From Macrostomum lignano (lineage: Eukaryota), in contig NIVC01004160.1 in NCBI GenBank assembly GCA_002269645.1, positions 1 through 57,377 of the forward strand: a stretch of DNA of 57,377 bases. Reading direction: 5' to 3'. Below are positions 6,718 through 42,300 of this stretch, one piece after another. Both the position numbers and the translations under genes were made by a program. Below the pieces are notes generated by a model that was given only the letters and a program-made list of their open reading frames with translations, was not told where the DNA came from and made no database searches. Each line of letters opens with the position of its first letter. The stretch's first letter is position 1.

Positions 6718-9700
6718 ATGCCATCCAGCAGAGGTGGCGGCATCAGCCTGCTGGGCCTGCCGCTTCTGCTGCTGCTCGCTGCGGCAGCTGTGAAGCCGGC
6801 AGAGTCCGTGTTCTCCTTCAAGGAGGGCAAGCAGTACGTGTACGATGTGGAGACGCACACGAAAACCAAGGACATCGGTGACCTGTTCGTCACAGGCCAG
6901 GTAGAAACAATTGTACAATCGCTTAGTGACGTGTATGCACCTGTAGGAATTTTAAAAATCAACCTAACTGCTTTTATTACCGTTAATATTTACCTAGACA
7001 GGTAATAATGCATGTAGCTTAATTTTTATCACCCATTGACTATATTGATTTAAATTTATTAAGATTAAAGAGAAAGTTAAGAAATTTTGATCAATTGCAG
7101 TTAAAAAATTTTTAATATCTTAAGGTTGGTTTGTGGCCGAGTCTCGGGTTTGGTTCATGGCCGAAGCTCGGGTTTGGTTTATCGCCGAGTCTCGGGGTTG
7201 GTTTATGGCCGAAGCTCGGGGTTGGTTTTGGACCGAATCTCGGGGTTGGTTTATGACCGAGTCTCGGGCTTGGTTTATGGCCGAGTCTCGGGTTTGGTTT
7301 ATGGCCGAGTCTCGGGTTTGGTTTATGGCCGAGTCTCGGGTTTGGTTTATGGCCGAGTCTTGGGCTTGGTTTATGGCCGAAGCTCGGGTTTGGTTTATGG
7401 CCGAGTCTCGGGTTTGGTTTATGGCCGAGTCTTGGGCTTGGTTCATGGCCGAAGCTCGGGTTTGGTTTATCGCCGAGTCTCGGGGTTGGTTTATGGCCGA
7501 GTCTTGGGCTTGGTTTATGGCCAAAGCTCGGGGTTGGTTTATGCCCGAAGCTCGGGGTTGGGCTCGGGGTTGGTTTATGGCCAAAGCTAGGAGTTGGTTT
7601 ATGGCCAAATCTCGGGGTTGGTTTATGGCCGAAGCTCGGGGTTGGTTTATGGCCGAAGCTCGGGGTTGGTTTATGGCCAAAGCTCGGGGTTGGTTTATGC
7701 CCGAAGCTCGGGGTTGGGCTCGGGGTTGGTTTATGGCCAAAGCTAGGAGTTGGTTTATGGCCAAATCTCGGGGTTGGTTTATGGCCGAAGCTCGGGTTGG
7801 TTTATGGCCGAAGCTCGGGGTTGGTTTATGGCCAAAGCTCGGGGTTGGTTTATGCCGAAGCTCGGGGTTGGTTTATGGCCAAATCTCGGGGTTGGTTTAT
7901 GGCCGAAGCTCGGGGTTGGTTTATGGCCAAAGCTCGGGGTTGGTTTATGCCCGAAGCTCGGGGTTGGTTTATGGCCAAATCTCGGGGTTGGTTTATGGCC
8001 GAGTCTTGGGGTTGGTTTATGGCCGAGTCTTGGGGTTGGTTGATGGCCGAGTCTTGAGGTTGATTGATGGCCGAGTTTCGGGGTTGGTTGATGGCCGAGT
8101 CATGGGGTTGGTTGATGGCCGAGTCTTTGCTCCGATCAGAAATGTTCCAGCATCGATATGGCTGAATCAATGAACTCGCAACTTCGCTGCTTTTATCTCA
8201 TTTTCTTGAATGTCATTGCGTCAGCTGTTTCAACCCTAACATCGATCCCCGGTTTTCAGTTTTCCATCCAGCTGCAAGGCAAGGAGCCGGATGGATCTCA
8301 GCACCTGGCCCTGACGCTGACAAAGCTGCACGCCAGGAACGGCCGAGGCCAGACTGCGGGTCAGGGCAGCGACGTCAAGCTGGATGGCTGGTTCAGCTTC
8401 CACCTGGACCCAGCCGGCCGGGTCAGCCATGTCCGGTATCCGCATGACGAGACTGCGTTCTTGGCCACTGTGAAGAAGGCCATGGTCACAGCGCTTCTTG
8501 GACACGATGACGTAAGCCCGAAAATTTCAGTTTCCATGCATATATTTCCTCTCACCGCCAAAATTTCATTGAATGACTTTTCAAAGCTGCTTTATGTAAA
8601 CCCAATTCAGGAGTACAAGTTCCACAACACTCACGAGTGGAGCACCAAGAATCGCACCATCGGTCGGTATCACACCGAGATTTCAAAGACCAGGCGCGGA
8701 GTTCATGGGAACAACGTGCACAGAAATGTCACCCATGTAAGCTTTCACACTTTTATGACAATTCTTTGCAGCACAGGCGTGCACACGATTTGCACTGGAG
8801 GAGAAGGCGAAACTCTTGGGGTGTCTTGAGCGGCACCCCTGTCTCTTGATTGGAGCAACTGTCTTTTGGTGGGCGACCCTGTCTCTTAGGTGGGTGCCCT
8901 GTTTCTTGGTGGCTGACACTGTCTCTTAGGTGGGTGCTACTGTCTCTTGGTGGCTGACACTGTCTCTTGGTGGCTGAATTTGTCTCTTAGGTGGGTGCTA
9001 CTGTCTCTTGGTGGCTGACACTGTCTCTTAGGTGGGTGCTACTGTCTCTTGGTGGCTGACACTGTCTCTTAGGTGGGTGCTACTGTCTCTTGGTGGCTGA
9101 CACTGTCTCTTGGTGGCTGACACTGTCTCTTGGTGGCTGACACTGTCTCTTGGTGGCTGACACTGTCTCTTGGTGGCTGACACTGTCTCTTGGTGGCTGA
9201 CACTGTCTCTTGGTGGCTGAATTTGTCTCTTAGATGGGTGCTACTGTCTCTTGGTGGCTGACACTGTCTCTTGGTGGCTGAATTTGTCTCTTAGGTGGGT
9301 GCTACTGTCTCTTGGTGGCTGAATTTGTCTCTTAGGTGGGTGCTACTGTCTCTTGGTGGCTGAATTTGTCTCTTAGGTGGGTGCTACTGTCTCTTGGTGG
9401 CTGAATTTGTCTCTTAGGTGGGTGCTACTGTCTCTTGGTGGCTGACACTGTCTCTTGGTGGCTGACAATGTCTCTTGGTGGCTGACACTGTCTCTTAGGT
9501 GGGTGCTACTGTCTCTTGGTGGCTGACACTGTCTCTTGGTGGCTGACACTGTCTCTTGGTGGCTGACACTGTCTCTTGGTGGCTGAATTTGTCTCTTAGA
9601 TGGGTGCTACTGTCTCTTGGTGGCTGACACTGTCTCTTGGTGGCTGAATTTGTCTCTTAGGTGGGTGCTACTGTCTCTTGGTGGCTGAATTTGTCTCTTA

Positions 9701-12350
9701 GGTGGGTGCTACTGTCTCTTGGTGGCTGAATTTGTCTCTTAGGTGGGTGCTACTGTCTCTTGGTGGCTGAATTTGTCTCTTAGGTGGGTGCTACTGTCTC
9801 TTGGTGGCTGAATTTGTCTCTTAGGTGGGTGCTACTGTCTCTTGGTGGCTGACACTGTCTCTTGGGTGGGTGCTCCTGTCTCTTGGTGGGCGCCCCTGTC
9901 TTTTAAGTCGACCCTGCCTCTTGATTTCCCTGTCTCTTGTAGCTACCCCCGTCTCTTGGTACCCTATGGCTTGGAAGGTATGCATATGCCTGTAAAAGAT
10001 GCGGCTAGAATGGAGCTTCTTTCCATCATCAAGATTGGAAATGCGCTTTTGCATTTTGGAGAAGCGTATTGCAGTTGGGAGCCATTTTTGGCGTGCGACT
10101 GGAGGCTGGACGATCTTCCAGTCGGCCCGAATGCCCTCCTGCTATAAAGGCTACTGTCATTCTCTAATTATTCCAGACCATGCACTACAATCACGTCACA
10201 CGTCTGCCTGAGAGAACTTTCATACACGATGAGATCCACTTCTTTAATGATCAACCTGAAGGGTGAGTCAGCGAAGCGTCTATCTGCCGCATGAGCATCC
10301 TCATACATGTAAACAGGTACTCTAAAATAAGGAACGTTTCTCTAATCGCAATATTTCAGCTTCGATTCGGGCGTCAAGGTCAGGAAGGGCCCACGGGTGG
10401 TGATGGACAGGGAGCACGAAGATCCGACAAGTGTGTCCAGGGTGACCACCACGGCAAAATCGGAGTTCACGCTATCTGAAGTTCGAGACGCTTCACCGAT
10501 CAAACAGAGACCAGCAAAGCTGGCGTCTGAGAATATTAACCAGACCAGGGTGAGCTCATGGAGTTGCCAGTTAGCGTTTTGAGCATCGCAGTACATGCCA
10601 ACTCACTATCCGTGTTTCAGCTGCATGAGGTGTTCCAGTCCGACTACGATTTACGAGACGTTCGGCGCGGCATCGACTCCAACCTCACCTGTATAGCCAC
10701 CGACACTGCGGAATGTGAGTTTGCTTAGCTAAATTATTTGTCAAGTTGAAAAGCTTTTGCTTGACTTTATTTTTGTCTTACGCCACTAAATTTTAGCCAA
10801 ATCCGACGCTATCGACTGCTACCACAACTTGGTTCAAATATTGCAAGGACTGTCTCAGCGAGAGCTGAATGAAATTGCTTCCATGTACTTGGACCGGCCG
10901 TATGGCAATATGTAAGCTCGCGCTTTTATTGGGATACCTGCTGTTGCTTTTGAGATCAACCGCAGCGAGCACACATGTAACTTGCTGCTTGATCTACCTA
11001 CATTTCAGCACAAAGGATCTGGAGAAGAAGAGGTTCCTGGCCATGCTGGATGCAGTCTGCAGTGTTGGCTCCGTTGCATCTGACTTGATCATCAATAAAC
11101 TGGTTCTCAAGTCCAGGAGCAGACATCCGGAGCTCGTCCAGAGGGTGCTCGTGTTTCTGGCTACAAGAAAGAACGCCCCAGCAAACGTGAGCTGAAGAAT
11201 TTGGAATGCCGTATCGAAATCGTAGAATACGGTAGTCCGCTTAAGTAGGGCTTTGAACTCGTGACTCGTGTTGCAAAATGCGTTATCAAAAAGCAAAATT
11301 TTCAATTTTAGCATTAAACTTCGCAATATTTCTCCTTCTGGATTTTCGAATTGCACATGAGCCAAGTATTGTTCGTAGGAAAAAATTGGAAGAGCATAAT
11401 ATTGCAGAGTGCAGAGTTCACAATTACATTTGTTTTTTAGTTTCGTGTTGTGATTTATTATTACCAGATATTGTTATTACCTTCTACTTAAGTCGTTCAT
11501 GACTCAAAGAGTACCAACATCCGGGTGCCATGATAAAAATGATGCTGTTTAAAAATGGTTTTAGGCCCTGGTGAATACTCTGGTCACGTTTGTGTTCAAT
11601 CCCGAGGGTCAGCCCGATATCAATGACCCGGACACTTACCACCGCTGCGTGCTTGCCCTCGGCACCGTCTGTCGCCTGATGCAAAGCTACGGCAACCAGC
11701 AGCAGAAGGCCATGGCTCAGAGCATAGTTAGCCAGCTGGAAAAATTGACCGAAGTCTTCGGTGAGTAAAAATATCAGAAATTGCTTTCATAAAGAGCTTC
11801 AAAATTGACAATTTAAAAGCCTCGCTTTCAGATCCGTACCATCACCGGTCAAAGAGGGACGTCATGGACGATGCAACATTCGAAAGGTTCATATTCTTGA
11901 AGTCTTCGCTGATTGACAGTTTAGGAAATGCCGCTTTTGAGAGTTCATTTGAGGTCATCCAGTCCTACTCTAACGAGTCGTCGGCACCCACTCTGTGGAA
12001 GCGTTCTGGGCTGCATTCTATGCGCAAATTCGAGACTATTGAGGTTTGTCTTTGTAGTAAACAGTCTGATTGCTCTCCTCAAGCGGGACTTTTATTTTTG
12101 TTTTTTGCATCCTGTTTTCAGGCAGCGTCAACAATCCTCACTGCCGCACTAACTGACTCTGACGAGCACGTTCGATACGAGGCCAGCCTGATGTACGAGG
12201 CTCATCCGTCAAAAACTAAGGATATTGCCACCATGCATCGCGAATTTGTTGAAGGGTGCGTTCAAAACGAGTTCTTTAACCCTATATGTAATTTGTTTAA
12301 ATCAATAATTATTTATTTTGCTATATATTTGCGCTCCGTGTTGTAGAATT
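6718..12350 (+). CDS. N-terminal large lipid transfer protein (vitellogenin-N/MTP-like) domain exons
   Basis: FSFKEGKQYVYDVET after the signal peptide matches the LLTP beta-barrel start. Helical-domain motifs CVLALGTVCRL, LIDSLGNAAF and KRSGLHSMRKF match the LLTP alpha-helical region (LKSLGN.G ... R..A..ALR). Confidence 0.7.
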
Positions 12351-18300: not shown

Positions 18301-21300
18301 TTTTTCAGCTACTCCGTGGATCGAGTTGGCAAGGACTACGTGAAGCTAGATTTCGACCTGTCCGTGTGCTTCGCTGAAGGAGATTGCGACTTCACAGTCA
18401 AGCTGCTGAAGGACACGGTGGTACCGCAGCCATTCTGCCATCGGAACTTCACCGGCGCTCTGCCAGGCGGCTCGCTTGGCGACTTCGCCAAACTGCTCGG
18501 CAACGAGGCCTCGGAGGCGGCGCTGCAGACAGCCTTTGAGGCGGTGGTGCGAAGGTTCGGCCTGCAGAAGGCCTTCTTTAATCCTCCAGAGTGCGCATTG
18601 CCGTCAAACACATTCAATAATGGCTGGGACAGTCGTGAGTCTTCGCTGTGAACTGACATTTACCTCATGACATAGTAAATCATTAAGCTTCTTTAATCAT
18701 GATTAATTACGCCTGCCCCAATGGGCAGATGTACAACTGACAGCTCAGTCGCAGTCATTGCGCGGCACATCTGAAGGCTGTGCACGGCTGTTCAGTCCAA
18801 TGACTGGGGGGTCACACACTCTTAATTACCCCAGCTAATGCTGGCACCCATTTTACAGCTGAGTGAACTGAAGCAATGCATAGTTAAGTGTCTTGCTCAA
18901 GGACACAGATTGTTCCAGTGGGATCGGAAATCGAACCCCCGAGTCGTGAGTCCGACACATTAACCACTATTACCAACAACGCATTATTCCACTGCTAACT
19001 TACACAGTAAGAAGTTAATTTACTTTTAGAAGTCACTACGCTCGTACAAGAGTCAGATGTCTATTGATGCTAAATTCTGTTCAGAATAAATTGAATGTCA
19101 TTTCCAGCTATGGAAAGTTCACTAGAAGCAGTTTATCCTCAAACTCGATTCCACAGGTTGCCCCAGGGTGTTCCACCTGCCACGCCTGCCCAGCCAGGTC
19201 CGCTGCCACCTGAACGAGTTCTGCATGGGCGTCACCTGCTGCGCCGAGCTGGACTTTAAAGTGTTTAAACCGACAGCGCTGATGTGGCTGATTCTGGATC
19301 CGTGCGAGTACCGGTTCTCCATTGGTTTCAATAACCTGCACTACAACCAGACTCTGTTCTATTATGAGTGGGGCCAAGTGGAGACTTTCAATATTGGCTC
19401 GCCTCTGCAGATTATGTAAGCTGTTGTATTTGAAAAGATAGTGCATGCAAGCTCCACAATCGGGTGACAAACGTTGACGCCTTTGGTGCTGCGATTTTGG
19501 TGCTGGCGCCTTTGGTGCTGGCGCCTTTGGTGCTGGCGCCTTTGGTGCTGGCGCCTTTGGTGCTGGCGCCTTTGGTGCTGGCGCCTTTGGTGCTGGCGCC
19601 TTTGGTGCTGGCGCCTTTGGTGCTGCGCCTTTGGTGCTGGCGCCTTTGGTGCTGGCGCCTTTGGTGCTGGCGCCTTTGGTGCTGGCGCCTTTGGTGCTGG
19701 CGCCTTTGGTGCTGGCGCCTTTGGTGCTGGCGCCTTTGGTGCTGGCGCCTTTGGTGCTGGCGCCTTTGGTGCTGGCGCCTTTGGTGCTGGCGCCTTTGGT
19801 GCTGGCGCCTTTGGTGCTGGCGCCTTTGGTGCTGGCGCCTTTGGTGCTGGCGCCTTTGGTGCTGGCGCCTTTGGTGCTGGCGCCTTTGGTGCTGGCGCCT
19901 TTGGTGCTGGCGCCTTTGGTGCTGGCGCCTTTGGTGCTGGCGCCTTTGGTGCTGGCGCCTTTGGTGCTGGCGCCTTTGGTGCTGGCGCCTTTGGTGCTGG
20001 CGCCTTTGGTGCTGGCGCCTTTGGTGCTGGCGCCTTTGGTGCTGGCGCCTTTGGTGCTGGCGCCTTTGGTGCTGGCGCCTTTGGTGCTGGCGCCTTTGGT
20101 GCTGGCGCCTTTGGTGCTGGCGCCTTTGGTGCTGGCGCCTTTGGTGCTGGCGCCTTTGGTGCTGGCGCCCCAAACTAAAAGCGCTAGCTAAGACCCTGAA
20201 AATCAGATGCTGTCTGAAGTGGATATCTGTGTTGCTATGCTATTCCAACCAAATCTGAAATCAAAGCTACTGAGATTATTAGATAATTAACGGAAATCGC
20301 GTCACGAATTTAAATAAGCTATTTCCTTCAGAAGTAAGTAACCCGGCCCATTAACCTTCAATTGCAGCTACTCAATTCGCAAGGACAGTGATCGGCGCTT
20401 GTTCCTCGTGGACCTGAAGCTCAGCCTCACCATCGACTCATTCCGCACCGACTTTGTGCTGCTTGAGAACTCCATGGTGCCGCAAGTGGGCTGCAACATG
20501 AACGCTTCTATCAGCTTGCCAGGAGGCGGCCAGGTGAAGGATTTTATCAGGCACCTAGCGGAGACAGGTGTGCAGAAGATCACGGACGAAGCCGTGCAGG
20601 CTGTGCTCAGACACCTGGGGATTGGAGACCTCATTGACTTTGAGTCGAAATGCGAGAATAGAACTGGATTTTTCAACCGTGAGAACATCACTACGAGCGT
20701 ACTGATTTTTTATACATGAACTCAATAAATTCATGTCAGTATAAAACCAAAATTCCAGACTGCCCGCTGTTCAAGACGTCGGCAAACGCGCCATCCAGAT
20801 TTGTCCCGGGCACTTACTGCGACCTCTCATCCGACTGCCGCATGCTGAGCTGCTGCGCGGAGCTCAACCTGCTCATCGCTCGGAAGGCCTTCGCCCTGGC
20901 CGTTTCTGTTGACCCGTGTGACTACAAGCTGCTGGTTCGCTTTGAGAAGATGACGCTGAGCAAGTCTTTGTTCCGATACGACTGGGGCCGTAGAGAGTCC
21001 TTCGACCTCGGCAAAGTCATTTTCGTCAGGTTGGATTTTTTCTTTGTCTCTTCAGAAGCACATTCGGAGCTGACATAAAAACTGATGTGTCTCTCTGCCC
21101 CGCAGTTTCAAGATCGATAGGGATCCGGTCAAGAAACTCTACTTCGTGGACCTTGAGCTGCAGGTTAAAATCGAGGGTGACACTTCGACACCCGTGGCCT
21201 TCCTCAACAACTTCGCCATCCCGATTCCGATCTGCAATCCCAATGCATCCATCAGCCTGCCAGGCGGCTCCATCGGAGACTTCGTCAAGGAGTTGGGCGG

Positions 21301-24300
21301 AAGCATCACGGAGAGCGCGATCGGAGCTGTGCTGCGGCACCTCCGGCTTGAAGGCATCATCGCCACGCATTCCAACTGCTCGCCGGAGAGCCCAAAGGGT
21401 ATTAGACTTTTTCAAATACTTTATTTTGCAGAACCACATGCTTAGACTGAAGTCTAGTTAGTGTAGATTTGTTTTAGGGTAAGAAAAGGCTTGGCCACTG
21501 CGCGGCCTTGAGCGCCAATATATATATTTAGAAATCGATATTTGCGTGGGGTGGAGTTGCGCCTGATAAAAAGGAAGCGTGCAAGCTAATTGGCTGCAGA
21601 GCGACCGGGGCAGGCATTGTACACTTGAGGGTCAGAGAGTTGGACGGGTGCACGGCCAACATCCTTCCCCAAGCGGATAAAAGTTAGGAGATAAGAGCAA
21701 ATGGGAAGCTAAGTAATATTTCGAAGTGGGAATCAGAGGGGAATGGATGTGAGTGAATAGTATGAAAATATACGGATTTGAGAACGAATATTCATTAGGG
21801 CATAAACACAAATATGAGCATGGATAAGAGTTTAGGCATTAGTTTCGATCAAATGAGCATTACCTTTGAAAATAGACACGAGCATTAGTTTCGAATATAA
21901 ATACGACATTAGTTTCGAATATAAATACGAGCATTGGTTTCGAATATAAATACGACATTAGTTTCGAATATAAATACGAGCATTGGTTTCGAATATAAAT
22001 ACGACATTCGTTTCGAATATAAATACGACATTCGTTTCGAATATAAATACGACATTCGTTTCGAATATAAATACGACATTAGTTTCGAATATAAATACGA
22101 GCATTAGTTTCGAATATTTGGCCTTTGAAGCAAAAGCTAAAAGCTATGTATGCTGCTGAAGATTAAAAAATAAAACGAGACCGGCAGGGACACCCCAGTC
22201 AGAGAGTTGGACGGGTGCACGGCCAACAGTTAGGTAATTTTAACTCTCAGAGTAAGCCAACTTGAAATAAGAAAAGATTAACTTTTACGATCGTACAGCA
22301 CCGCATAGGAACCTACCCCCCCCCCCCTACATATCAGATATTATCAATGCAAGTGTCGAATAGTTCATAAAAAACTGGCAGGGTGATAGCAAGCTCTTTG
22401 AATTACGTTCTCTACATTTTAATTCCACTGCCGTGCAAAAATTTCAGTTTGTCCCGGCCTTACGCTGCCCGACTTCATTCCGGACCCGCTGAAGTGCTAC
22501 CTCAACGAGCACTGCATGGGCATCGAGTGCTGCATGAGTTTGGATTTCAAAATCAAGCAGATCTCCGTCAAAGCCTGGGCCTATGTTGATCCATGCGACT
22601 ACAAATTCTCAATCGGTCTGGAAAACTGGAAGTTCGAGAGGGCGCTGTTCTCATTCGACTGGGGAGAGTGGAAAACTGAACGTCTGGGCAACCCGCTGGT
22701 GCTGCGGTAAGTCAGCAGCCGCCATCTGCTGGCGTGGGGGAATTTTTTAGCTAAATATGTTGTTAATTTCAGATACCGGATCGCAAAGGACAGCTCTAGG
22801 CGCGTGTTCACCTTTGACCTAACAATATCGCTGAAGGTGGAGGACATCAACCAAGAGTCCGTTGTGCTGCACGGCTACGAAATTCCGCAGCTGGTTTGCA
22901 ACAGGGAGGCTTCAATTGGCATTGCAGGTCCGAGCTTGCACTTATTCAACATTTATTCAAGTTATACTGTTCAATAGTGCCTGTCTATCAAATTGAAAAG
23001 CTTAGACTGCATAAGAAACCTTTATATAATTGCTATACATATTCACCCGATGAAAGGCATTTTGCTAACTGTGAAACACTCCTCCCTCCCGCCTTATTCT
23101 GCAAGGCATTGTGCTTCTGCCATAACCTTAACGCTATACTGATTTAAAGAACCATGCAATGAGAATAGGTGTATCAAAATGTAAGTGAAATATTTGCAGA
23201 CCTAATCAACCTGGGAAGCAGCATTGGCGGGAACATCAAGGACACAGCCATGGGCATCACTCTGCAGCGCATCGGGCTGGACAAGAAGTTCTTCCGGATG
23301 CAAAACTGCTCAGTCGAAGGCTCCGAGTGGCAGAGCTCTTCTCGGCAGCAATCAAGTGGGTAGCCATTTGTATGTTTTGTCCATTTAATGCTGCAATCAG
23401 TCAGATTTTAACGCTAATATTTTATGCATTCTCAGACTGTCCGCTGTTCAAACTATCGGACCATCTGAACGGCGATAAGAACTTGAAGTGCCGCATCAAA
23501 GACAACTGCCTGGAGGTTGAGTGCTGCCTCAGCCTGCAGCTGGGCAACTTCCGCTACAGCTACAACGCCTGGGCAAAGTTCGACCCCTGCCAGCTGTCTG
23601 TAGCGGTTGGAATTGAAAATTGGAACTGGACCCGGTCACTGTTCGACAAGTGGGGCCTCATGCACACGGAGACCATTGGCAAGGCCATCGATTTGAGGTG
23701 AGGCGAATAATCCCTCCCGCAAAATTTAGTTCGGAGAGGAAATCAACAGACTTTTTACACTATTTTACAGCTTCAAATTCGACCGCACGAATCGGAACGA
23801 GCTCGTCGTGAGCTTCGGGGTCGGCACCCAGCTGGACGGCCTATCGTTGTTGCCAACTGCGTGGCTGATTGAGTCCGCTCCGCTGCCCATTCCCTACTGC
23901 CGCTCCGATAACACGCTGTCTTGGCCAAAATGTGAGAGAATCAGATAATCTTCTTCAGTATCTTAAAGTGGGAAAAAACTACTAATCCCAGTTTGCTCTT
24001 TCTGTCCCACAGTCGATCCGCAAGACATGGCCAAGTCGATTTTCGATGCGGGCACTAAGATCATCCTGAACAGAGTGGGCATCACCGCCAACATCCTTCG
24101 CGGCACAGCGTGCTCCCCAGTCGATATGAACATCTGGCCTCCGAAGAGTGGTAAGGTTCCATTGCGGTTTGGTGCTTTTGTACCTGTGGTCAGCACTGAG
24201 CCTAAGACTTGGATCCCCAGGGGCTCACATCTCGTGCGCTTTACAAGTGGCAGACATAAATAAAGAACCTACTCACTTGCCCGACGCAACAGAACAGCTA

Positions 24301-30300: not shown

Positions 30301-33300
30301 TGCCTTGACGATGCAGGACAGCCCTGCACAGTGGTTGGCCTACTTGACAATCAGCGGTTGCAGGTGCCTCTGTGTCACACCAACGGAACGATTGACTGTA
30401 AGTAATGGTACTTCAAGGTGATGTGTTCCTTATTACCCGACTTTCGATAATCAAGGAACAATCACTTCTAGCTCAACAGCTAGGCAACCCAGTAAGTCAA
30501 ACGAAGGTATTCAATTACCTTTAATCCGGATTTGAATTTCTTGAGTAGTTCTCGCTAGATTGTCAGTAGATCTCGTAGTCACTTGATTTTCGTTGTCTGG
30601 TCCGATTCTTCTTTCTTCTAAGTTCCGGCCGGATTCTTCGCTCAGGACCAATGAGCTCGTAGCAACAATGGGTCCCTGCGCCAAACTGCGGTCTAAATTA
30701 AGCCTCCTTCTTCTAGCAGTGCCTCTATGCACTCTAGGTATAGCTCCGGAAACCACTGATAGTCCTCTAAGATCTATCAGGGGCAGTCCTTCTGTAGACT
30801 GCAACCAATGGAGTCTAAACAGACTCAAGAGTCTCAACAGACTCAAATAGACTCAAGTCTCAATAGACTTGAGCGAGACGTCTCTAACACAACGGCGCAA
30901 ATAAGGAAGGCTTACCGCAACAACTCGACCGAGTCTCGATTGACTTGGTATATCAGGAAGTCCTCCTAAGGCTTCCTCTTCGGAGCGCTCCTCTTCCGTG
31001 GGGAGAATGGCTCCGGTACCGCTTCAGATCGCTTGTATTTATAGACAAGTTTTTGATCCAAAATAGTATCATGACAATTCACGTGTTGCGCTAAAAGGGG
31101 AAAATGGCTCATGGCGTATTATTCTGGTAACATCTTTTTCTGGTAGCGTGATTCATTCAAAGCTTAGGCGCACATGCGTGTACTTACTTACTTATAGTAG
31201 TATTATACGATTATCTTCTTTTTTCCTTTTTTAACGGGAGGTAGAACACTCTACAAAATCTCCCTTTTTTACGAAAAAACTCGTCCCGAGTTTTAACAAT
31301 AAAATTCTGTGGTGATCAGTTAATATAGGAAATAAACAATTGATTTTGTGCGCGTCTAGTGAAGCGAGGGTTTGGTCAAAACTCTAAAAACTTTTCAGTA
31401 CATATTGCGGTCAAAACTCGAATATCGCGTAGACATCAAGTGGCATCAGGTTTGATCCGACACCACTTTCGAAACGTGCAGTCTCGCGGCATACTATTAC
31501 ATAAGGGGCATCCTATAACGCCCCTACTAGCGGTTTGCTTCAAACAGTGCATGCAAATAAAATGTTGGTGGTTACAATATTGAAACGTGCGCCAAGAATA
31601 ACAATAGGCACATTGTCGCAAACTATCTCTACAGAGGGGACAATTCTGCCATGGCTGAATATAATGTGAATCGCTTAAACATTGTCCGCAAACTTTATGT
31701 TCGTTGATGCAAATAGTCGGTGGCTTGACAGCCAAGTCATCAGTTAAACATATCGGGCAGTCATATAGCTGCTGAGGCTGGGGCGCCTGTTTTGACAGTG
31801 CGTTGCCCATAATTGTCGTCAATTTGTCGCTGTCTTTGTGTCGCTCGGATTAGTCGCCTTTTACGACAAGCTTGCGAAGCTGTAGTGCTATTCTTTATCC
31901 CGGTCACTACACGGGGTTGTTCTCTAAACTCTAGCGTGGTCGTAGGTTGTAGCCATGTGGCTGGCTCACATCTGTCGTTTGAGTCTCCTCGTGCTTCGTC
32001 GCGATGTGGCGGTTCGTTGAACGCGTGCGATCAGCGTTGTCTAATGTCGGTAGAAACGTCGCGGTGTCAGTGTTGATCTTCTTTAGTCGATGAATGTGCA
32101 CGTAGAATTGATGCTGATGTGGATCTTGCACATTAGCCAGGCGTGCCGTTGTTGGTGACGTTAGTTGGACCACTCGATAGGGTCCTTTATACTTCTGTGC
32201 ATGTTTATGCGTCTGCTGCGGCGGGTAGTGTAGGTAAACGATGTCGCCGGCCGTCAGGGTTGTCGATCTCGCGTCGTTGCCGGTGGTCAGAGCCACCTGG
32301 TTGTCAATGTTGTGCTTGGCGATCTTCCATGCGAGGTGTAGTTGCGTGACGAATTTCTGAATGGAAGTCGGTACTTCCACGTACTGCGATGGTAGCAATT
32401 GCTGTGCGAGCAGATTCGGCGGTTGGAAGTCTCGTCCAAACATTAGGAAGAATGGCGTATTGTCCGTTGATCGATGAATAGCGCTGTTGTAGGCCATTGT
32501 TACAGATTGCAGGTAGATGATCCAGTCTTCCGGCTGTTGGTGCGCGAAATGTGTAATCATCTCGTGCAGGTTGCGGTGAAACCGTTCAACCATGTTTGCC
32601 TTCGGATTGTAGGTCGATGTGTAGATCTGCGTAATGTTGAGAATCCTTACGACTTGCTGAAACAGTTGCGATGTAAACTGCGATCCGTTGTCCGATGTGA
32701 GGTTCTTCGGCGTGCCGTACTTGCAAATGATTTCGTTGAAGAAACTCATTGCCACTGTCTGAGCTGTGATGTCCGGTATCGGTATGGCGATAGCAAACTT
32801 CGAGAAGATATCCAAGGCGGTTAGAATGTAGGTGTAGGCGATGCCCTGGAGACAGCTCGGTGGCAGTGGTCCGGTGATGTCGATGCTTAGACAGTCCATT
32901 GTAGTCGACTTCGGAATGGACTGTAGCTGCGGTTTCTGTCGTCGTCCTGTCTTTGATGCAGCACATGAATGGCAGTTGTTGCAATACTGCTTGATGTCGC
33001 CGTACATAGTTGGCCAAAAGTAGTATTGTTCCACTCTCGCGATGGTCTTTGCGGCCGACAGGTGTCCAGCGAGTGGGTTGTCGTGCAGCTCGTTGAGAAT
33101 TGCTTGCCGAAACGAATATGGTACGTAGATCTTGGGTTTATTGTCGCTCATCCAGTAGAGCCGTGACTTATTGATTGTTAGGTGTTGTCGTTGCTTGCGT
33201 AGGAACTTTCGTTCCATGGGGCTAAGTTTGATGTTCTTGTCGTCGTCTTTAACCGCTTGGTAGAAGTTGTCGCGCTCGGTTTCATCCACCAACTCCTTGA

Positions 33301-36300
33301 TGTTAGGGATTGGATGAATGGCGTTGACTTCATAGGCTCTTGACAGGGCGTCCGCGGCTTTGTTGGTAATTCCTGGTTTGTAGACGAGTTTGTAGTTGTA
33401 ATCCTGGATCTTGAGTGTCATCCTGATGAGTCGGTTGTTGGTCTGTCCTTTTGTAGTTACGACGTAGGTCAATGGTGCATGATCCGTGCGTACTATCGTC
33501 TGTATTGGAGAACCATAGATGTAGTAATGAAACTGTCGCAGGGCGAACAAGACTCCTAGTAGCTCTCGTTCCGTAGCTGACCACTTTGTCTCATTTGGTT
33601 TGAGTGCTCGACTGACGTAAGCAATAGGTCGTTCCTTCTTGTCCTCGGTTTCCTGTAGTAGGACTGCTCCGAGTCCCGTTCCTGAGGCGTCTGTCTCGAT
33701 GATGAAGAGCTTGTCGAAGTCCGGATGCTGTAGCAGTGCGTCTGATGTCAGCTGTCGTTTGATTTCGTCGAAACTTTCCTGTTGTCTCTGTGTCCAGTTG
33801 TCTTGCTTCCATTTGTCGAACTTGAGCAGGTCGTACAGTGGCTTTGCTGTCTTTGCGAAGTTAGGTAAGAACTTCCTGAAGTATTGCGCAAGTCCAAGGA
33901 ATGATTGGACCTTCGTTATACTGGTTGGCGTAGGAAACTTCTTCACCTTTTCCACGTTGTCTGGGTCCGGTGAGATTCCTTTGGCTGTCACCTGATGTCC
34001 CAGGTAACGCACGTTGTCTCGGAAGAATTTGCATTTAGTTGGTTGTAGCTTCAGACCTTGACGTTGTATAAGCGCGAGGGCCTTCTCCGTCGCTTCATAG
34101 AGTCGTTCGAAGTCTTCTCCGTGGGCCAAGATGTCGTCAACATAGTGCAACAGGTTCGTGCATCCTGCAGCATGTATGCTGTTAGTCGGCTCATCGTTGC
34201 TGGGCTGTTGCTGAGTCCCATCGGCGATCGATTGTACTCGTATACTTGTCCATTGTAGGTTTTGAAAGCCGTGTACTGTCGTGACTCTTTCTCGATTTCA
34301 ATTTGCCAAAATCCATGACGTAGGTCGAACACCGTGAACAATTTTGCCGTGTTGAGCTTTGCTAGTAGTTCGGAGATCTTCGGTAGGCTTTGCTGATCCG
34401 TCGGTATGTACTTGTTCAACAGTCTGAAGTCGCATACGAGTCGTCTTTCGTTTGTCTCCTTCTTCTGTACCAGTAGGCACGGTGAGGAGTAAGCCGAAAT
34501 AGCTTTGCTGATGATGCCGTGCTTTAGCATTTTATCGATGATTTCGTCAAAGTGTTGTTGCAGATGCTTGGCGATCGGGTACGGCTTGCACTGAATTGGT
34601 TCCGTGTGCGGCAGAAGTTTGATTTCCTGTTTGATGTCCTTGGCTCGTCCGATGTCGTAATTATGATGGCAGAAGGCTTCGTTGTACTTCCACAACAGCT
34701 GTCGAACTTTCCTCTTTTGCTGTTCCGTAATCGGGCTGTCATCCAAATTGATCTTCTTTTGAAATTCTTCCTCTGTTAGTCGTGGAGTCGCTTGTTCAAT
34801 CAGCATAACCGATGCTTGGGTGTTGAGATGACCGATGCACATTCCTTGTCGTAGATGAACCGTTTCTGTGTTCGGGTTGCAGATTTGTACTGGCAGTTGC
34901 TTATCCTTTGCAACCAGCACTAGTGCCGTAGGCATCATGATTTGATGTTTTGCCGTGACTCTCCTGTGTGGATCAAATATCATTGCTTCATCTGCCGCGC
35001 TGGTCGTTTTCGCTCTGACCCAGCATGCGCTTTCAGGCTGGATAATGACATCTTGCTGCAGAGTTACTTTCGGTAGTACTCGAATCTGGTTGATCAGCGG
35101 TTGCTCCACCGTGTCGATCCTAAACGTTTGCTTGTTGAAGTCGAAGGTCAATGGTAGTTGAAGCTGCTTGAACGTGTCGATTCCAACGATGACGTCTTGG
35201 TTTGGTAGTCTGTCGATGATGTACGTCGGGACCGTCAGCTGTTTATTAGCAATTTTCAAGTCGATATCTGCTTTTCCTAGGATGTTGAGTGAATGTCCTC
35301 CTGCTCCTGCAACTGCGATTGCTGCTGGTCGTACCGCGAGTCGTAGCTTGTTGCATAATTGTTGCGAGATGACTGTGATCGAGCTGCCTGAATCCAGTAG
35401 TGCTCGACATGGCAAGTTGTTGACAATGACCTGAGCCATTGCTTTGCCAATCTCGGCGTGTAGCGTACAGACGTAGTTTTCCGGCCATTTTGGCTCGTGC
35501 TGTTCTGCTTGATAGTTGGGTGGTTGTATCCTTGGTGCCGTTGGTGTTGTCGGAATCGATGGATATAGCCGCGTTGCTAGTGTCGGTTGCCCTTGAACCT
35601 CACAATGTGCAGTTTCTGTTAGTTCTAAACTGTTGTCGCTTCCCGTTGTCGTTCTTTGCATTATGGCATTCACTGTCTTCTTAGCTCTTGGACAAGTTTG
35701 ACTGAAGCACCGTACGATCGATGAAATGATGAAGATTGCCGTGACAATCCACACAATGCAAGCACCGTAGAAGATGAATCCTTGATAGAGACTGCCTCTT
35801 CCATTGAGCAGCTCCCAGAAGCTATTTGTCCAAAATGATTTGATGGCGCTGTCCATTGAAACAAGGACGGGAAATCTTCCTGTCCCGGTTCCTTTGTCCT
35901 TTCTTGTGAACAGCTGGTGAATCATCTTGCGTTGGGTGATGAACGCTTGCAAGAAGTCGTTGATCGTCCATCCTGGTGTTATCTCGTCAAGTTGGATATC
36001 GGCGAATGGCGTATACTTCGTTCTGTTGAATCGGATTTTCAAATCCTCCATGTCGTAGTTTTCGTCGACGATTACTTCCGGTTCTGTGACGTTTGCTGTC
36101 GTTCCAGTTGTTTTGATGACGTGTAGTGCATTGTCCAGTTGATAGTAGTTTGCTGCCGTGGTGCAAGGTCTCGGTATTGCGGTGCCAACGATGATGTTGT
36201 GTACCGTGTCCAAGAATCCCTGAATTCGTTTTCCTTCGTAGAACGCTTCAATCCTTGGCTTGTCGTAGCAGGTTGTTGACGTGTTCGACGGCAAGATGTT

Positions 36301-39300
36301 AAAGTGCTGTATCGGCGTGCACTTGTATATTAACAGATGCTCGTATATTGGAACTGCCAAAACGTTCGTCATTCCGGTGATTTTACGAAAAGTCATCGTA
36401 GGGTTGACATAGTAGTTTTGTCTGGCATAATTTAAGTTGATTGCGTGCATTTTGCAAGTTAGCTGGACCAGTGTTCGATGCAAGTGGTTTAACTGGTTGT
36501 GTAGATTGTGATCCAAAGCCGTTATCTTTGCTGACAGTAGTCGGTTTGACACCAGTTTGGGACGTTCGATGTCACGTCGTCGTCTGTTCTGTTGTTCCTG
36601 CTGTTGATACGTTCCGTTGATGATCGCCAGAAAGGTTTGTTTGTCGTCATCTTTTACGTAGACTGGTATCTCTTGTTCCGAGATGAATAGTGTCTTGTCT
36701 GTATCCTTGCATTTCAGTTTTTGCTCGACTGGTTTCTTTTGAAACGTCAGTGCCAAGTCTCCTGACTTTGCCAAAAACGTATTTGACAGTAGTCCTCCTT
36801 CAACTGTGTGATACTTTTGAAGCTTGCAGTCAATTTCCGGCTCAACTTCCCACGCGAAGAAGTATTGTCGTGACTTAGATGGTTCTTCATATCGTGAGTC
36901 GCCTCTGCGTATAATTTGCCATCGATAGTCTTGATGATATGTTGGACTCAACGGTAAGCTGTATAGTTCCTCATTCCGCAGTATCGGCGTTGGACACCAT
37001 CCTTTGCTGTATCGGCAGTCGCTTAATTGCAGTTGTAGCGACTCCATTTTTTCAAAAGGATTGTGATAGAATGGAATATTCCTGATTAGGTAACTGTTTC
37101 GTGTCATGTAGTTAGTCCATGCTTCCGAAAAGTGTACATATCGTCCGTTTGCTGAGTTCTTCGTTCGGTAAAGTTGTGCCTCCCCACTTTCTCATCCGGT
37201 TCTAGCTGACCATCCTTTGAGAACAGTGTTTGGTTCCATTGTAGACATTCAGCGTGCGACACATGTAGTTCGTGTTGCCAAAATCGAATTCTGTTCCACT
37301 GTCCTCGCCAAACTTTTTCCACTAGGTGCTTGTCTCTAAAGCACACTATTCCGAGTTGTCGATGCTTCTTGATGTTAGCTTTGTAGAGATCAATTGTGAT
37401 CTTCTTTGGCTTCGTCTGGTTTGTCTTGAAGTAGCTGCATTTGATGTCGGTTGGTATCTTGTAGATCATTGGTTGGATATGCGCATCCGTTGGACATATC
37501 ATTGGTTTCTCCATTGCCGTTGCTTTGGCGACTACTGCTATCAGTAGTATCACGATGATCCAGAGCAGCCAGTTTTTCCACTTCTTGGACCTTGCCGTTG
37601 TCTTTGCTGGCATTGGCTGCGATTGCCATTCGTTATCCTCCATGTCCGCATCGTATTCTTTCGGTTGTTCCATTGGCTGATTCAGGCGGAAGGCTTCTGA
37701 TTTGCTTTGCTCTTTGGTTATTTCAGTATCTTCGTCTGTAGCTTCTTCCGATGTTTCCGTTGTTTCACTCCATTGCGTTTGGTATCTTTTCTCTGCCTTG
37801 TAGTCGACCGTTTGAATATAGGCTTCACCATTTCGTTTGTATCGGATCTCGTAGCATTCGTCGCTGTCGGAACTCGGCTTTTCTTTCATTTGTTCTTTTT
37901 CCATTTCTTCATCTTTCCATTGTATTTCGTAGCCTTGATCGCTGTCGGAACTTAGATTTTCCGCTCTCAGTTCTTCCTGCATTCCTTCTTCGGCTCGGTA
38001 TCCATTCGTATCATCATGCACTTCGCAGTCGTGATCGTTGCCGTAACTTATACATTCTTCTTCTTCCTTCATTTCTTTGTCTTTCGTGCTTGTTTTTTCG
38101 TCATCCACTGTTGTCGATTCATAGTTGTTTTCTCTGCCAGTCTTCATCTTTTCTTCGTTGCCGGTGTCGCTCTCCGTCTCCTCCCTTTTTTTGTGATTTA
38201 CTTTCTTCCTGTTTTCTCTGCTGTCTCCGGTGGTCTCTTTTAATTTGATCATTTCGGTTTCATTCGCCTCTTCTGTGTTGTCAGTGTTGTCCTCGTGCGT
38301 CGTCTTCTTTTCGATCAAGCTGATGTCAAGTTCCGGGACTGTGAAGTCCATTTCCAAGTCGTCAATTGTGAACACTTGCTGTTCCTGCTGCTCATTTTCC
38401 GGTGTGTACGTGATGGCATTCGCGTATCGTGGCATTGCTTGCGTTGGCTGTCTTTGTGCGTACCTGGCATTGCGTGGCCTGTAGCCATTATTTCTGAAGC
38501 GGCCTTCGTTTCCGAAGCGGCCATCATTTCCGGAGCGGTCATTATTTCCGAAGCGTCTATCATTTCCGACGCGTCTTATGCTTTGTTGTTGGCGATTTTG
38601 ATATTGCTGCCATGGTTTCTGCGGCTTCTGATTGTTGAATATCTGTCGCGGCTTGTCGTATCTTGTTGACCAATGAGGACAATTAATCTGATAATGTCCT
38701 TCTTGTCCGCAGTAGTAACATCTGGCTGAGGCTTGTTCATTTCGTCTTTTTTGTTCGGCGATAGCAGCTGTCTGGTGCTGCATTAACTTGTTTAGTTGCT
38801 GCGTCAGTTTCTGCACTTCATTGTTGCCTGTCGTCATTAATGGGGCACTGGCTTCCCACTGCATTCCGCACCGCAAAAGGTCTTCTTCGGTTTCGATATT
38901 TTCACGCAAAAGTCTATCCCGAAGTGACGGCTGTGCGTTGTTTATTACGTGCAGGATGAGGTTTTGTTCGCGATCCATCAATCGTTGTCTTTCTCTGGCG
39001 GCCAATTCTGCCGCTCCCAGTGGCGGTTGGTCCGCAGCTTGCAGCGGTGGCTGATGCAGTGCCTTAATTATCTGGCGGATATCGTCCACAAAGGCGAGGA
39101 AGGATTCTGTTGCTTGCATCCTTCTGTTATGCAACTTGTGCAGCAGCACTGATCTGTTTGTGCCGCAACGGTTGAAATGCGCGCGCAGTTGAATGATTAG
39201 TGCTGGATAATTTTGCTGTGTTGCTGCATCCAGCTTGCCGTAAATTTCTCGCGCAGTACCTTGGAGAAGAGGTGGCAGCAGCTGTGCCTTCTCTGGATTT

Positions 39301-42300
39301 TGTAGGTTGTATTCCCTACATACCAGGTCAAAGTGGTCGACAAATGTGTTAAAATCTTTCTCCATCGAGAAGGTACCGACCGTTTCTTTGATGTCTCTGT
39401 GTACCGTTGGATTGCGCCGCGCCATGTTGTTGATAGGATAGAACGGTAGTTCAAGATCTGGATCGATTTGTAACGGATCGTCCAGTGTGGTGTTTGCCTC
39501 GGAATAAACCTCGACTGTAACGAATTGTCTTGTGGTGTCGATTTGTTATTCGCTGGCCTCGGATGCGGTGTGGCTTGCTGCCACTGGTTGTCCTCAAATG
39601 AACTTGTTCTGTTCGCTTGCTGATTTCGCACTTATGCGGCGTCCCGCAAAGTGTATCTTCAAGTTGAAGTGGGCTTTGTCTTCTTGTTTTGCAAAGTCTT
39701 TTTCTCTTCTTTGACTCTCTCTCTTTTGTCAATTAACTCCGCTCTCCACGAAGTTTCAATTAATTTCGGTTTTGTTTTTGTGCCGGCAAAATGTTTCAGT
39801 TATTTTTTGTTTGTTTTGCGTCGACGATTCTTTTATTTTCGGTTTGTTTTCAGTGTACCGATGAATTTAATTTCGGTTTTATTTTAACTCACACTTGCTC
39901 GAGCTCGTTAAAACAAAATTTAACACGCGTGCTCAAACTGTACTCAAATTTGACAGGTGCTCAAACCTGTACACCAAAATTTACTCGAGTTTCAAAACGT
40001 AACGGACTTAAAAAGTGTTAACTCTAACACGTGCGCGCAAAATTAATGAAGTCGCTCTGTCGTCACTTTACAATAGCTTGATCAGGGCTATTGCTCAAAG
40101 TTTGAGTAGTGCCGAGAGGGCGAGATCACCAATTGATGTGTTCCTTATTACCCGACTTTCGATAATCAAGGAACAATCACTTCTAGCTCAGCAGCTAGGC
40201 AACCCAGTAAGTCAACAGAAGGTATTCAATTACCTTGAGTCCTTTGGAGATCTCTCGGAGTAGTTCTCGATTGTCTTCAGTTGCTCTCGTATAGTCACTT
40301 CTGACTTTCGTTTGTAGAGCGGGTCCGATTCTTCTTTCTTCTTCAAATAGTTCCGGCCGGATTCTGTCGCTCGGACCAATGGGAAGCTTCCGAATTAACA
40401 GTGGGATCCCTGCGCCAAACTGCGGTCTAAATTAAGCCTCCTTCTTCTAGCAGTGCCTCTATGCACTCTAGGTATAGCTCCGGAAACCACTGATAGTCCT
40501 CTAAGATCTATCAGGGGCAGTCCTTCTGTAGACTGCAACCAATGGAGTCTAAACAGACTCAAGAGTCTCAACAGACTCAAATAGACTCAAGTCTCAATAG
40601 ACTTGAGCGAGACGTCTCTAACACAACGGCGCAAATAAGGAAGGCTTACCGCAACAACTCGACCGAGTCTCGATTGACTTGGTATATCAGGAAGTCCTCC
40701 TAAGGCTTCCTCTTCGGAGCGCTCCTCTTCCGTGGGGAGAATGGCTCCGGTACCGCTTCAGATCGCTTGTATTTATAGACAAGTTTTTGATCCAAAATAG
40801 TATCATGACAATTCACGTGTTGCGCTAAAAGGGGAAAATGGCTCATGGCGTATTATTCTGGTAACATCTTTTTCTGGTAGCGTGATTCATTCAAAGCTTA
40901 GGCGCACATGCGTGTACTTACTTACTTATAGTAGTATTATACGATTATCTTCTTTTTTCCTTTTTTAACGGGAGGTAGAACACTCTACAAGGGGTAACAG
41001 AAGAAAATGGATTTACGAAAAAATTATTTTTACACTCTTAGGGGACTTTGATAAGGTCGACGGCAGCAAGATCTGGGACAATGCCGCTGAGATAGCGCTG
41101 AAGCGGTTGAACATCCCTCCAGGCGTGTTCAAACCTGAGAACTGCTCAATCGTCACTTCGGCCGCGGTGTCAAGAAAGAACTGTCCGCATTTCACTGTGC
41201 CTCCGCATCTTCCTGAGGGCGCCAAGTGCAGAATTAGCGACGACTGTCTGGAAATGGATTGCTGTGTCGACCTGCAGCTGCTATCGTTTAAAAAGCAATT
41301 CCACGTCTGGCTCGAGATCGACCCGTGCGGTCTGCGGTTCGAAACTGGCTTTGAAAACTGGAAGTTCAACATTAGTCTTCTTAATCATATCGGTGAGACT
41401 ATTCATATGACGATTTGCGACAGAACTGTGTGCTCAAAAAGGCTTAAACCAACTGTCTAAAAATTCATAGGTCGCAGCTACAAGGAGAAGATTGGCAACT
41501 CGCTGTCAGTCAATTTCGAATATGGCCGAGCATCCGACGGTCAGCTGTTGGCCACGCTGTCAGTAGAGTTTTGCTACGACTTCCAGTGTACATTCGACAT
41601 CAAGCTGCTTGATATGGCAGTGATACCCATTCCAGCCTGCGGAGCATCAGGACTCGTGTGGCCTGAATGTGAGCCGTATTGTAGTTCCTTTGTACTTTGA
41701 AGCTATTACTTATCAGGAATTTGATAATAACTGAATTTGTAATTTCAGTAAACGCGGCCGGTCATGCCAAATCTGTCGAAGAGGCCACAAGAGGTCTTAT
41801 CGCTAACCGGCTGAAGCTGTCCCCGAACTTCCTGGCGGATCGTCAATGCGTAGTGAACGAAATTTTGAGCAGAAATGTGACTTGCTCACACGCCAATGTG
41901 CCTGCCTTGCCAGAATTCACAACTTGTGGCCTGGCACCCGGCTGCCTAGGAGTTGAGTGCTGCCAGCTAGTGGACTACAAGCTGCTCAATAGGAGCTTCT
42001 CCACCTGGATTCAGTTCGATCCTTGTACCTACACGTATTCAGTTGGCTTTGAGCGCTGGTATCTGAATGGCACTCTCATGAATTTTACTGGATGGAATGA
42101 AGAGCAGCAGCAGAAGATCGGCGACCAGCTCACCCTGCGATTCAAGGTGGCAAAAGCGCAACAACTGCAAAGCTTCATAGTAGGCATGTCGCTTGAGTAC
42201 TGCGATGCCAACGATTGCAATCGAGTAGCGAATATTCTTCACGATCAGGAGTTCCCGGTTCCCGTCTGTTTGGACGGCTCCAGGCTTGAATGGTCGAATG

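Follow-up and report, generated by a model that had tools for sequence, protein, structure and literature searches.

The stretch analysed here, referred to as the window, is the 57,377-nt sequence of contig NIVC01004160.1 from Macrostomum lignano (assembly GCA_002269645.1). It carries on its minus strand a complete element bounded by long terminal repeats (LTRs), extending from LTR to LTR over 40989-30419. We consider it probable (roughly 0.7) that this element represents a recently active, multi-copy family of Ty3/gypsy (Metaviridae) LTR elements, very probably the published Mlig_errantivirus_2, in which a gB-type envelope gene (env) sits between gag and pol, shares one frame with both, and the whole is made as one polyprotein. 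The gag-env-pol order is already known. In their survey, Chary and Hayashi (eLife 2026, PMC13524379) describe errantiviruses of Nematoda, Bryozoa and Platyhelminthes in which env is of the HSV/gB type and the order is GAG-ENV-POL, and which are not monophyletic. Because the order has been published, the finding opens no new class; its value is that of a well-resolved example, which presents the arrangement as one polyprotein read in one frame, with a membrane topology that makes sense, purifying selection acting on env, and exchange of env between subfamilies. The family being high-copy, recently active and most probably housed in a laboratory flatworm, processing, particle formation and soma-to-germline passage become testable.

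A first-pass annotation, made from the letters alone, had placed a Ty3/gypsy element with env between gag and pol at 31931..39425. These limits are exact, the first Met lying at 39425 and the stop codon of pol ending at 31931. The minus-strand order it gave (gag, env, protease (PR), reverse transcriptase (RT), RNase H (RH), integrase (IN)) was recovered, with the zinc knuckle, signal, RxRR site, transmembrane helix, LDSG, YVDD, RNase H and integrase all located. Its suggestion of an atypical env-bearing lineage holds in so far as this is a real Ty3/gypsy element with many insertions and a predicted class III env fold, while the novelty it implied does not, the order having been published. Its own caveat that surveys may already report this order was well placed, since elements of nematodes, bryozoans and flatworms are described with GAG-ENV-POL in the survey (PMC13524379).

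Anatomy of the element

The features are listed below in their order along the minus strand. The LTRs, the primer-binding site (PBS), the polypurine tract (PPT) and the accessory open reading frame (ORF) after pol were absent from the first-pass annotation.

40990..40993, minus strand: target-site duplication (TSD), 5' copy; its partner at 30415-30418 has a one-base mismatch
40134..40989, minus strand: 5' LTR, 856 nt, TG...CA ends
40120..40131, minus strand: PBS, 2 nt past the LTR end
38679..39425, minus strand: Gag, capsid-like part from the first Met, with a CCHC zinc knuckle (38720-38679)
37569..38678, minus strand: basic/Gly-Arg-Asn stretch, then an extended acidic spacer, both in the gag frame, with basic residues at its end before the signal
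37512..37568, minus strand: internal signal sequence with an A-x-A signal-peptidase-type motif at its end, where cleavage probably occurs
35782..37514, minus strand: env ectodomain, ~576 aa, predicted class III (gB-like) fusogen
36585-36574, minus strand: furin-type RxRR within env
35725..35781, minus strand: env transmembrane anchor, followed by an in-frame tail of ~100 aa and the protease
35164..35433, minus strand: aspartic protease, LDSG at 35397-35386
33989..34467, minus strand: RT core, YVDD at 34144-34133
33398..33796, minus strand: RNase H
31931..33124, minus strand: integrase with H2C2 zinc domain, rve core and GPY motif, to the stop codon
31436..31810, minus strand: accessory ORF, 124 aa in the window copy, with two RING-like Cys/His clusters
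31259..31270, minus strand: PPT
30419..31255, minus strand: 3' LTR, 837 nt, TG...CA ends

The hallmarks of Ty3/gypsy elements are thus present, with direct LTRs, PBS, PPT and a short TSD, and with pol in the order PR-RT-RH-IN, integrase being last and carrying the H2C2 and GPY motifs. Among solved structures, the RT-RNase H region scored 219 bits to Ty3, against 155 bits for the polyprotein ranking second and no more than 142 bits for retroviral RTs. As judged from this comparison, the element belongs to Ty3/gypsy (Metaviridae). The two LTRs of the window copy are 94% identical overall, with an identical first part and ~150 nt that have diverged further on, which suggests recombination between family variants.

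The only Macrostomum row in the Supplementary file 1 table of the survey is Platyhelminthes_Rhabditophora_Mlig_errantivirus_2, tabulated with a gB-type env, 16 copies, an LTR of 863 nt, a spacing of 9,727 nt and a PBS 12-mer (PMC13524379). Our element agrees with it in the GAG-ENV-POL order, the predicted type of env and the multi-copy state, and the reverse complement of its PBS is identical to the tabulated 12-mer (12/12 nt) at the same offset of 2 nt behind the LTR. This PBS is unchanged in 19 of 20 other copies, the remaining one being cut off; a tRNA gene search of the window found none. The LTRs in the window's subfamily are 837-864 nt long and the LTR start-to-start distance is 9,734 nt, compared with the published 863 and 9,727 nt. 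Named Macrostomum lignano polyproteins in the database are 97-99% identical to the C-terminal part of env and pol of the window. The family is therefore very probably the published one, as matched by features and named database proteins and not by element sequence. The traits by which the survey recognizes GAG-ENV-POL errantiviruses (PMC13524379) are found here, with env between gag and pol and a gB-type ectodomain, as predicted, flanked by a signal and a transmembrane segment; a coding region free of interruptions and multiple copies of high similarity, also used there, are found in the family, the window copy itself being broken.

Copies and reading frames

With 1.4 kb of env DNA as query, all 40 places that were scored (out of 89 candidates) matched at 95-100%, and the whole 7.5-kb coding region was found in one piece at 13 places including the window, at 96-100% (21 scored of 153 candidates). 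Candidate numbers were alike in the env (89) and pol (84) searches, 40 of the latter candidates being scored. The 20 best env matches besides the window were fetched for comparison. The order gag, signal, env, protease, RT is kept in 19 of these 20, while one is truncated by a contig end; one fetched copy has a duplicated RNase H-integrase part. Exact 4-bp target duplications flank 12 of the 14 copies tested, at 11 distinct sites. Several independent copies with the same order, which the first-pass annotation had proposed as support for a real lineage, are hence at hand, and the copies lacking env or carrying it after integrase that it had named as contrary evidence did not appear in this env-chosen sample.

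The copies fall into subfamilies. The second one (L005-L016, L019 and L020) has LTRs of ~1,050-1,080 nt, and its gag and protease DNA is 83-87% identical to the window. Despite this divergence of 13-17%, env is shared between the subfamilies at 99% (up to 99-100%), a result that selection of copies by env favours. Three copies (L018-L020) are mosaic in make-up, their switch points lying close to domain borders, and the synonymous divergence (dS) along one copy pair ranges from <0.1 to 0.9. These swings of dS, together with a shared env despite diverged gag and protease, indicate that the copies are recombinant mosaics. Two tandem pairs were observed, L002 with L004 (G000:C2447) and L013 with L015 (G000:C669), of which the former has the window's 5' flank in common and a different 3' flank, and is either a recombinant or an assembly join. 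L035 (G000:C3190:26300-29350) lies on a sister contig at the host site of the window copy; there, a stretch resembling a solo LTR is identical to the 5' LTR of the window, is interrupted by ~1.9 kb of other DNA and has an exact 4-bp duplication.

The window copy is distributed over three frames. Gag and the N-terminus of env lie in the ORF 39545-37104, the rest of env, the protease and the beginning of RT in 37191-34051, and the remainder of pol in 34297-31931. One frame break is therefore in env (37191-37104) and one in RT (34297-34051), neither at a domain border. The first-pass annotation had put the env N-terminus in frame with gag and its C-terminus in frame with PR-RT, which is borne out; its wording implied the break in env and omitted that in RT. 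At both breaks, the contigs of four of four runs, which stem from four studies, do not agree with the window sequence, and three of the 20 fetched copies are stop-free from gag to integrase in a single frame of 2,480-2,538 codons. Across the other copies and the window, 80 frame-changing gaps fall into 59 different 30-nt bins in all domains, with at most 4 of 21 copies sharing a bin. Homopolymer errors were rejected as the cause of most of them, since only 9 of the 80 touch runs of at least 4 bases (background 4-5%). A programmed frameshift was also rejected, as no break at a domain border is common to all copies and no stable fold follows the slippery-type heptamers, and so was a splice removing env, with no such joint in the four contig sets. 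Two joints, 31609-31840 and 31916-36797, are each confined to a single contig of a single run, have non-canonical ends and were not used.

It is possible, if unlikely, that the same anatomy is combined with an extra supply of Gag or Gag-Env, from splicing, frameshifting or copies stopping after env, which would set the Pol ratio. Retroviruses need Gag in large excess over Pol, all three stop-free copies have a slippery-type heptamer in phase between helix and protease, and the env tail has two places at which frame changes recur among eight of 21 copies (L001-L004, L005, L006, L009 and L011), four copies changing ~10 codons and four ~30 codons past the helix. However, none of the heptamers, of which there are 4-6 per frame, is followed by a stable structure (z -1.4 to +1.4), the listed contigs of three of the four runs bridge the env tail gap-free, no joint skipping env to link gag with pol occurs in the contigs of the four runs, and a single-frame gag-pol is common in Ty3/gypsy elements. 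The shared env-tail breaks are not located in base runs, and represent either inherited variants making only Gag-Env or systematic assembly errors.

Env and the proposed polyprotein

The Pfam family Monjiviricetes_fusion matches env weakly and under its cut-off (E 2.8e-5), so that a fusogen profile hit, the lack of which the first-pass annotation had named as a possible refutation, was not obtained in full; the predicted fold did match gB. From a copy without breaks, the ectodomain (576 aa) was modelled with 28 homologues as input. The model (mean predicted confidence, pLDDT, 77; predicted TM-score, pTM, 0.51) consists of beta-rich domains and a 47-residue central helix. Its best matches in the PDB are herpesvirus gB (E 5.6e-21), and in a viral library the glycoproteins of a rhabdo-like virus (E 1e-24) and a nyavirus (E 6e-24), with chu- and herpesvirus glycoproteins among the others. 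On the strength of these matches, env is predicted to be a class III (gB-type) fusogen.

In each of the three stop-free polyproteins, exactly two segments exceed the hydropathy threshold, and these flank env; 12 cysteines and 5-6 N-glycosylation sequons lie between them. Pairwise ratios of non-synonymous to synonymous substitution (dN/dS) among the three are 0.04-0.12 for env and 0.01-0.11 for the capsid and enzymes (0.01-0.02 for the capsid-like part of Gag), compared with 0.3-0.5 for the fast-evolving spacer. Env is therefore under purifying selection comparable to that on the enzymes.

A single RNA starting from the 5' LTR would, according to the reading we prefer, be translated into one polyprotein of ~2,440-2,500 aa. 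Since the two hydrophobic segments flank env, with the cysteines and sequons between them, the chain would pass once into the endoplasmic reticulum and once out, leaving Gag cytosolic, env lumenal, and protease, RT, RNase H as well as integrase cytosolic. Env would be processed by signal peptidase and furin, while Gag would stay tethered through the signal stub and Pol through the env tail until the element's protease releases both. Capsid, enzymes and fusogen would in this way be brought to one membrane at 1:1:1, without splicing or frameshifting, and particles might bud through that membrane and enter other host cells by means of env, stem and germ cells included. In flavi- and alphavirus polyproteins, a capsid is followed by an internal signal, a lumenal envelope protein, a stop-transfer helix and cytosolic enzymes, with cuts made by host signal peptidase and a viral protease. 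The plan proposed here may be compared with this textbook arrangement of capsid, signal and envelope. The likeness is one of working plan with no homology claimed, since those viruses differ in having an unrelated capsid, class II fusogens and an RNA replicase.

Env might instead have been retained for something other than cell-free infection, either to provide an anchor in the membrane while assembly proceeds inside the cell or to allow passage directly from cell to cell, with the family spreading mainly as an ordinary retrotransposon. An extracellular step is unneeded for a high copy number, and the mechanism of entry of gB-type elements is stated as unknown in the discussion of the survey (PMC13524379). 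We regard this as rather improbable, however, because a whole class III ectodomain, as predicted, with 12 cysteines and a furin-type site has been kept at the low dN/dS given above, which goes beyond what an anchor needs, and because env is nearly identical across subfamilies that diverge in gag and protease, as if exchanged or selected.

Several points weigh against the reading of a single polyprotein of an infectious, already published element. As assembled, 17 of the 20 fetched copies and the window copy are broken, and the frame shifts in the env tail of eight of 21 copies are unexplained by a single obligatory polyprotein. A 1:1 ratio of Gag to Pol is unusual for budding retroviruses. The copies were picked by env similarity, so that env-less ones may exist besides them. 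The four runs were available as contigs and their RNA origin is only guessed, so they are evidence of presence and not of transcription, and rare splice forms would vanish in them. The env model is moderate (pTM 0.51) and superposes only loosely on its matches overall (TM-score 0.41-0.48, rmsd 11-18 Å). Identity with Mlig_errantivirus_2 is drawn from shared features and named database proteins, and infectivity is inferred here from genes alone.

Relatives and the accessory ORF

A profile-free search covering 1.84 billion representatives yielded 40 homologues of env (E <=0.001), of which the named ones are from Macrostomum lignano and nematodes, the nematode-labelled P0010 and P0031 matching env. 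Among the 20 longer homologues scanned, the knuckle, env and protease occur in one chain in P0002, P0016, P0022, P0034 and P0036, and env, protease and RT in P0010, while in P0029, a BEL/Pao protein, env comes last. A tree built with FastTree from 125 RT-RNase H rows, five near-duplicate rows having been dropped, pairs the element with P0002, a second Macrostomum family with env before pol (RT 41% identical, support 99). P0002, a named Macrostomum lignano protein, is a gag-env-pol polyprotein distant from the present one, and an insert of ~200 aa divides its env match ahead of the furin-type site. The nematode-labelled P0010 stands apart; the tree has 3 label changes, of which the strongly supported branches force only 1. 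An env profile search found env in none of the 119 long proteins nearest by RT. Two candidates were rejected. P0071, a polyprotein of 2,980 aa that comprises gag, protease, RT, integrase and a chromodomain, bears a precomputed fusion-family label and ends in a second protease, does not have the same order, since gag-PR-RT-IN-chromodomain precede that label, and P0001 (3,074 aa, env deep inside) is not a second order but a patchwork gene model of the window's element family with foreign parts.

A one-off rearrangement or misassembly that inserted an env fragment between gag and pol, to which the two frame breaks, partly unlike LTRs and one-base TSD mismatch of the window and the recurrence of its 5' flank before a tandem pair on another contig could point, is refuted by the order kept in 19 of 20 copies, by exact 4-bp duplications at 11 distinct sites, by contigs of independent runs spanning both the env-protease junction and the spacer-signal region, and by the same order in the distant family of P0002.

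Insect errantiviruses (gypsy, ZAM) and vertebrate retroviruses have, as here, LTRs, PBS, PPT, gag, PR-RT-RH-IN and an env that bears a signal, a furin site and an anchor. Their env is a separate spliced ORF 3' of pol and of F-type or class I (established knowledge; PMC13524379), unlike that of the element, which is predicted to be class III and lies inside the polyprotein. Non-canonical nematode endogenous retroviruses with a flipped env-before-pol order were reported by Sacco et al. (2022, J Gen Virol 103:1739), as cited in the survey (PMC13524379). In outline, these resemble the present element in being metaviruses in which env precedes pol and the glycoprotein is of an RNA-virus type, in a different host phylum. 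They reportedly have a continuous gag-env-pro-pol ORF, a Nyamiviridae-like env and extra small ORFs. The gag-env-pol arrangement is not described in the accessible parts of PMC12801592, PMC4604429, PMC5408684 and PMC11889832. The main text of the survey (PMC13524379), its figures aside, makes no mention of a single-frame polyprotein topology, mosaic subfamilies or a RING-like ORF, and a literature search found no other description of the topology with two membrane segments together with a RING ORF having a myristoylation-like start.

The ORF 3' of pol encodes a small RING-like protein and not env, so that the plan of insect errantiviruses and Retroviridae is not the one seen here. It is present in 20 of 21 copies, the remaining one having a duplication there, and varies from 70 to >190 aa in length, being shortened to 70 aa in eight copies. 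In 19 of the 20 it starts with Met-Gly, and Ser is found at position 6 in both subfamilies; we take this start to be myristoylation-like. RING models fall below cut-off on this ORF, a word search found no homologues, and its feature look-alikes are viral RING proteins (scores 0.87-0.92, low recognition), among which arenavirus Z (0.87) is no more than a lead. That the ORF has decayed in many copies speaks for its being dispensable in cis. We mention as a speculative and quite improbable model that the elements assemble by a non-retroviral route, in which a membrane-threaded 1:1:1 polyprotein would be joined by the Met-Gly tandem-RING protein as a lipid-anchored matrix or budding factor analogous to arenavirus Z; a separate factor is invoked because Gag is without a myristoylated matrix domain. 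If true, this would provide a testable model, in a flatworm host capable of transgenesis, for the passage of gB-type retroelements between stem and germ cells.

The element is inserted within a very long host gene (~11700-56000, plus strand) with Cys-rich repeated modules and long exons, two of which were tested and gave no Pfam match. The window also contains tandem arrays at 2195-2944, 7003-8223, 8787-9920, 19356-20260 and 21858-22100, with periods of 35, 24, 20/41, 15 and 24/25 nt, respectively.

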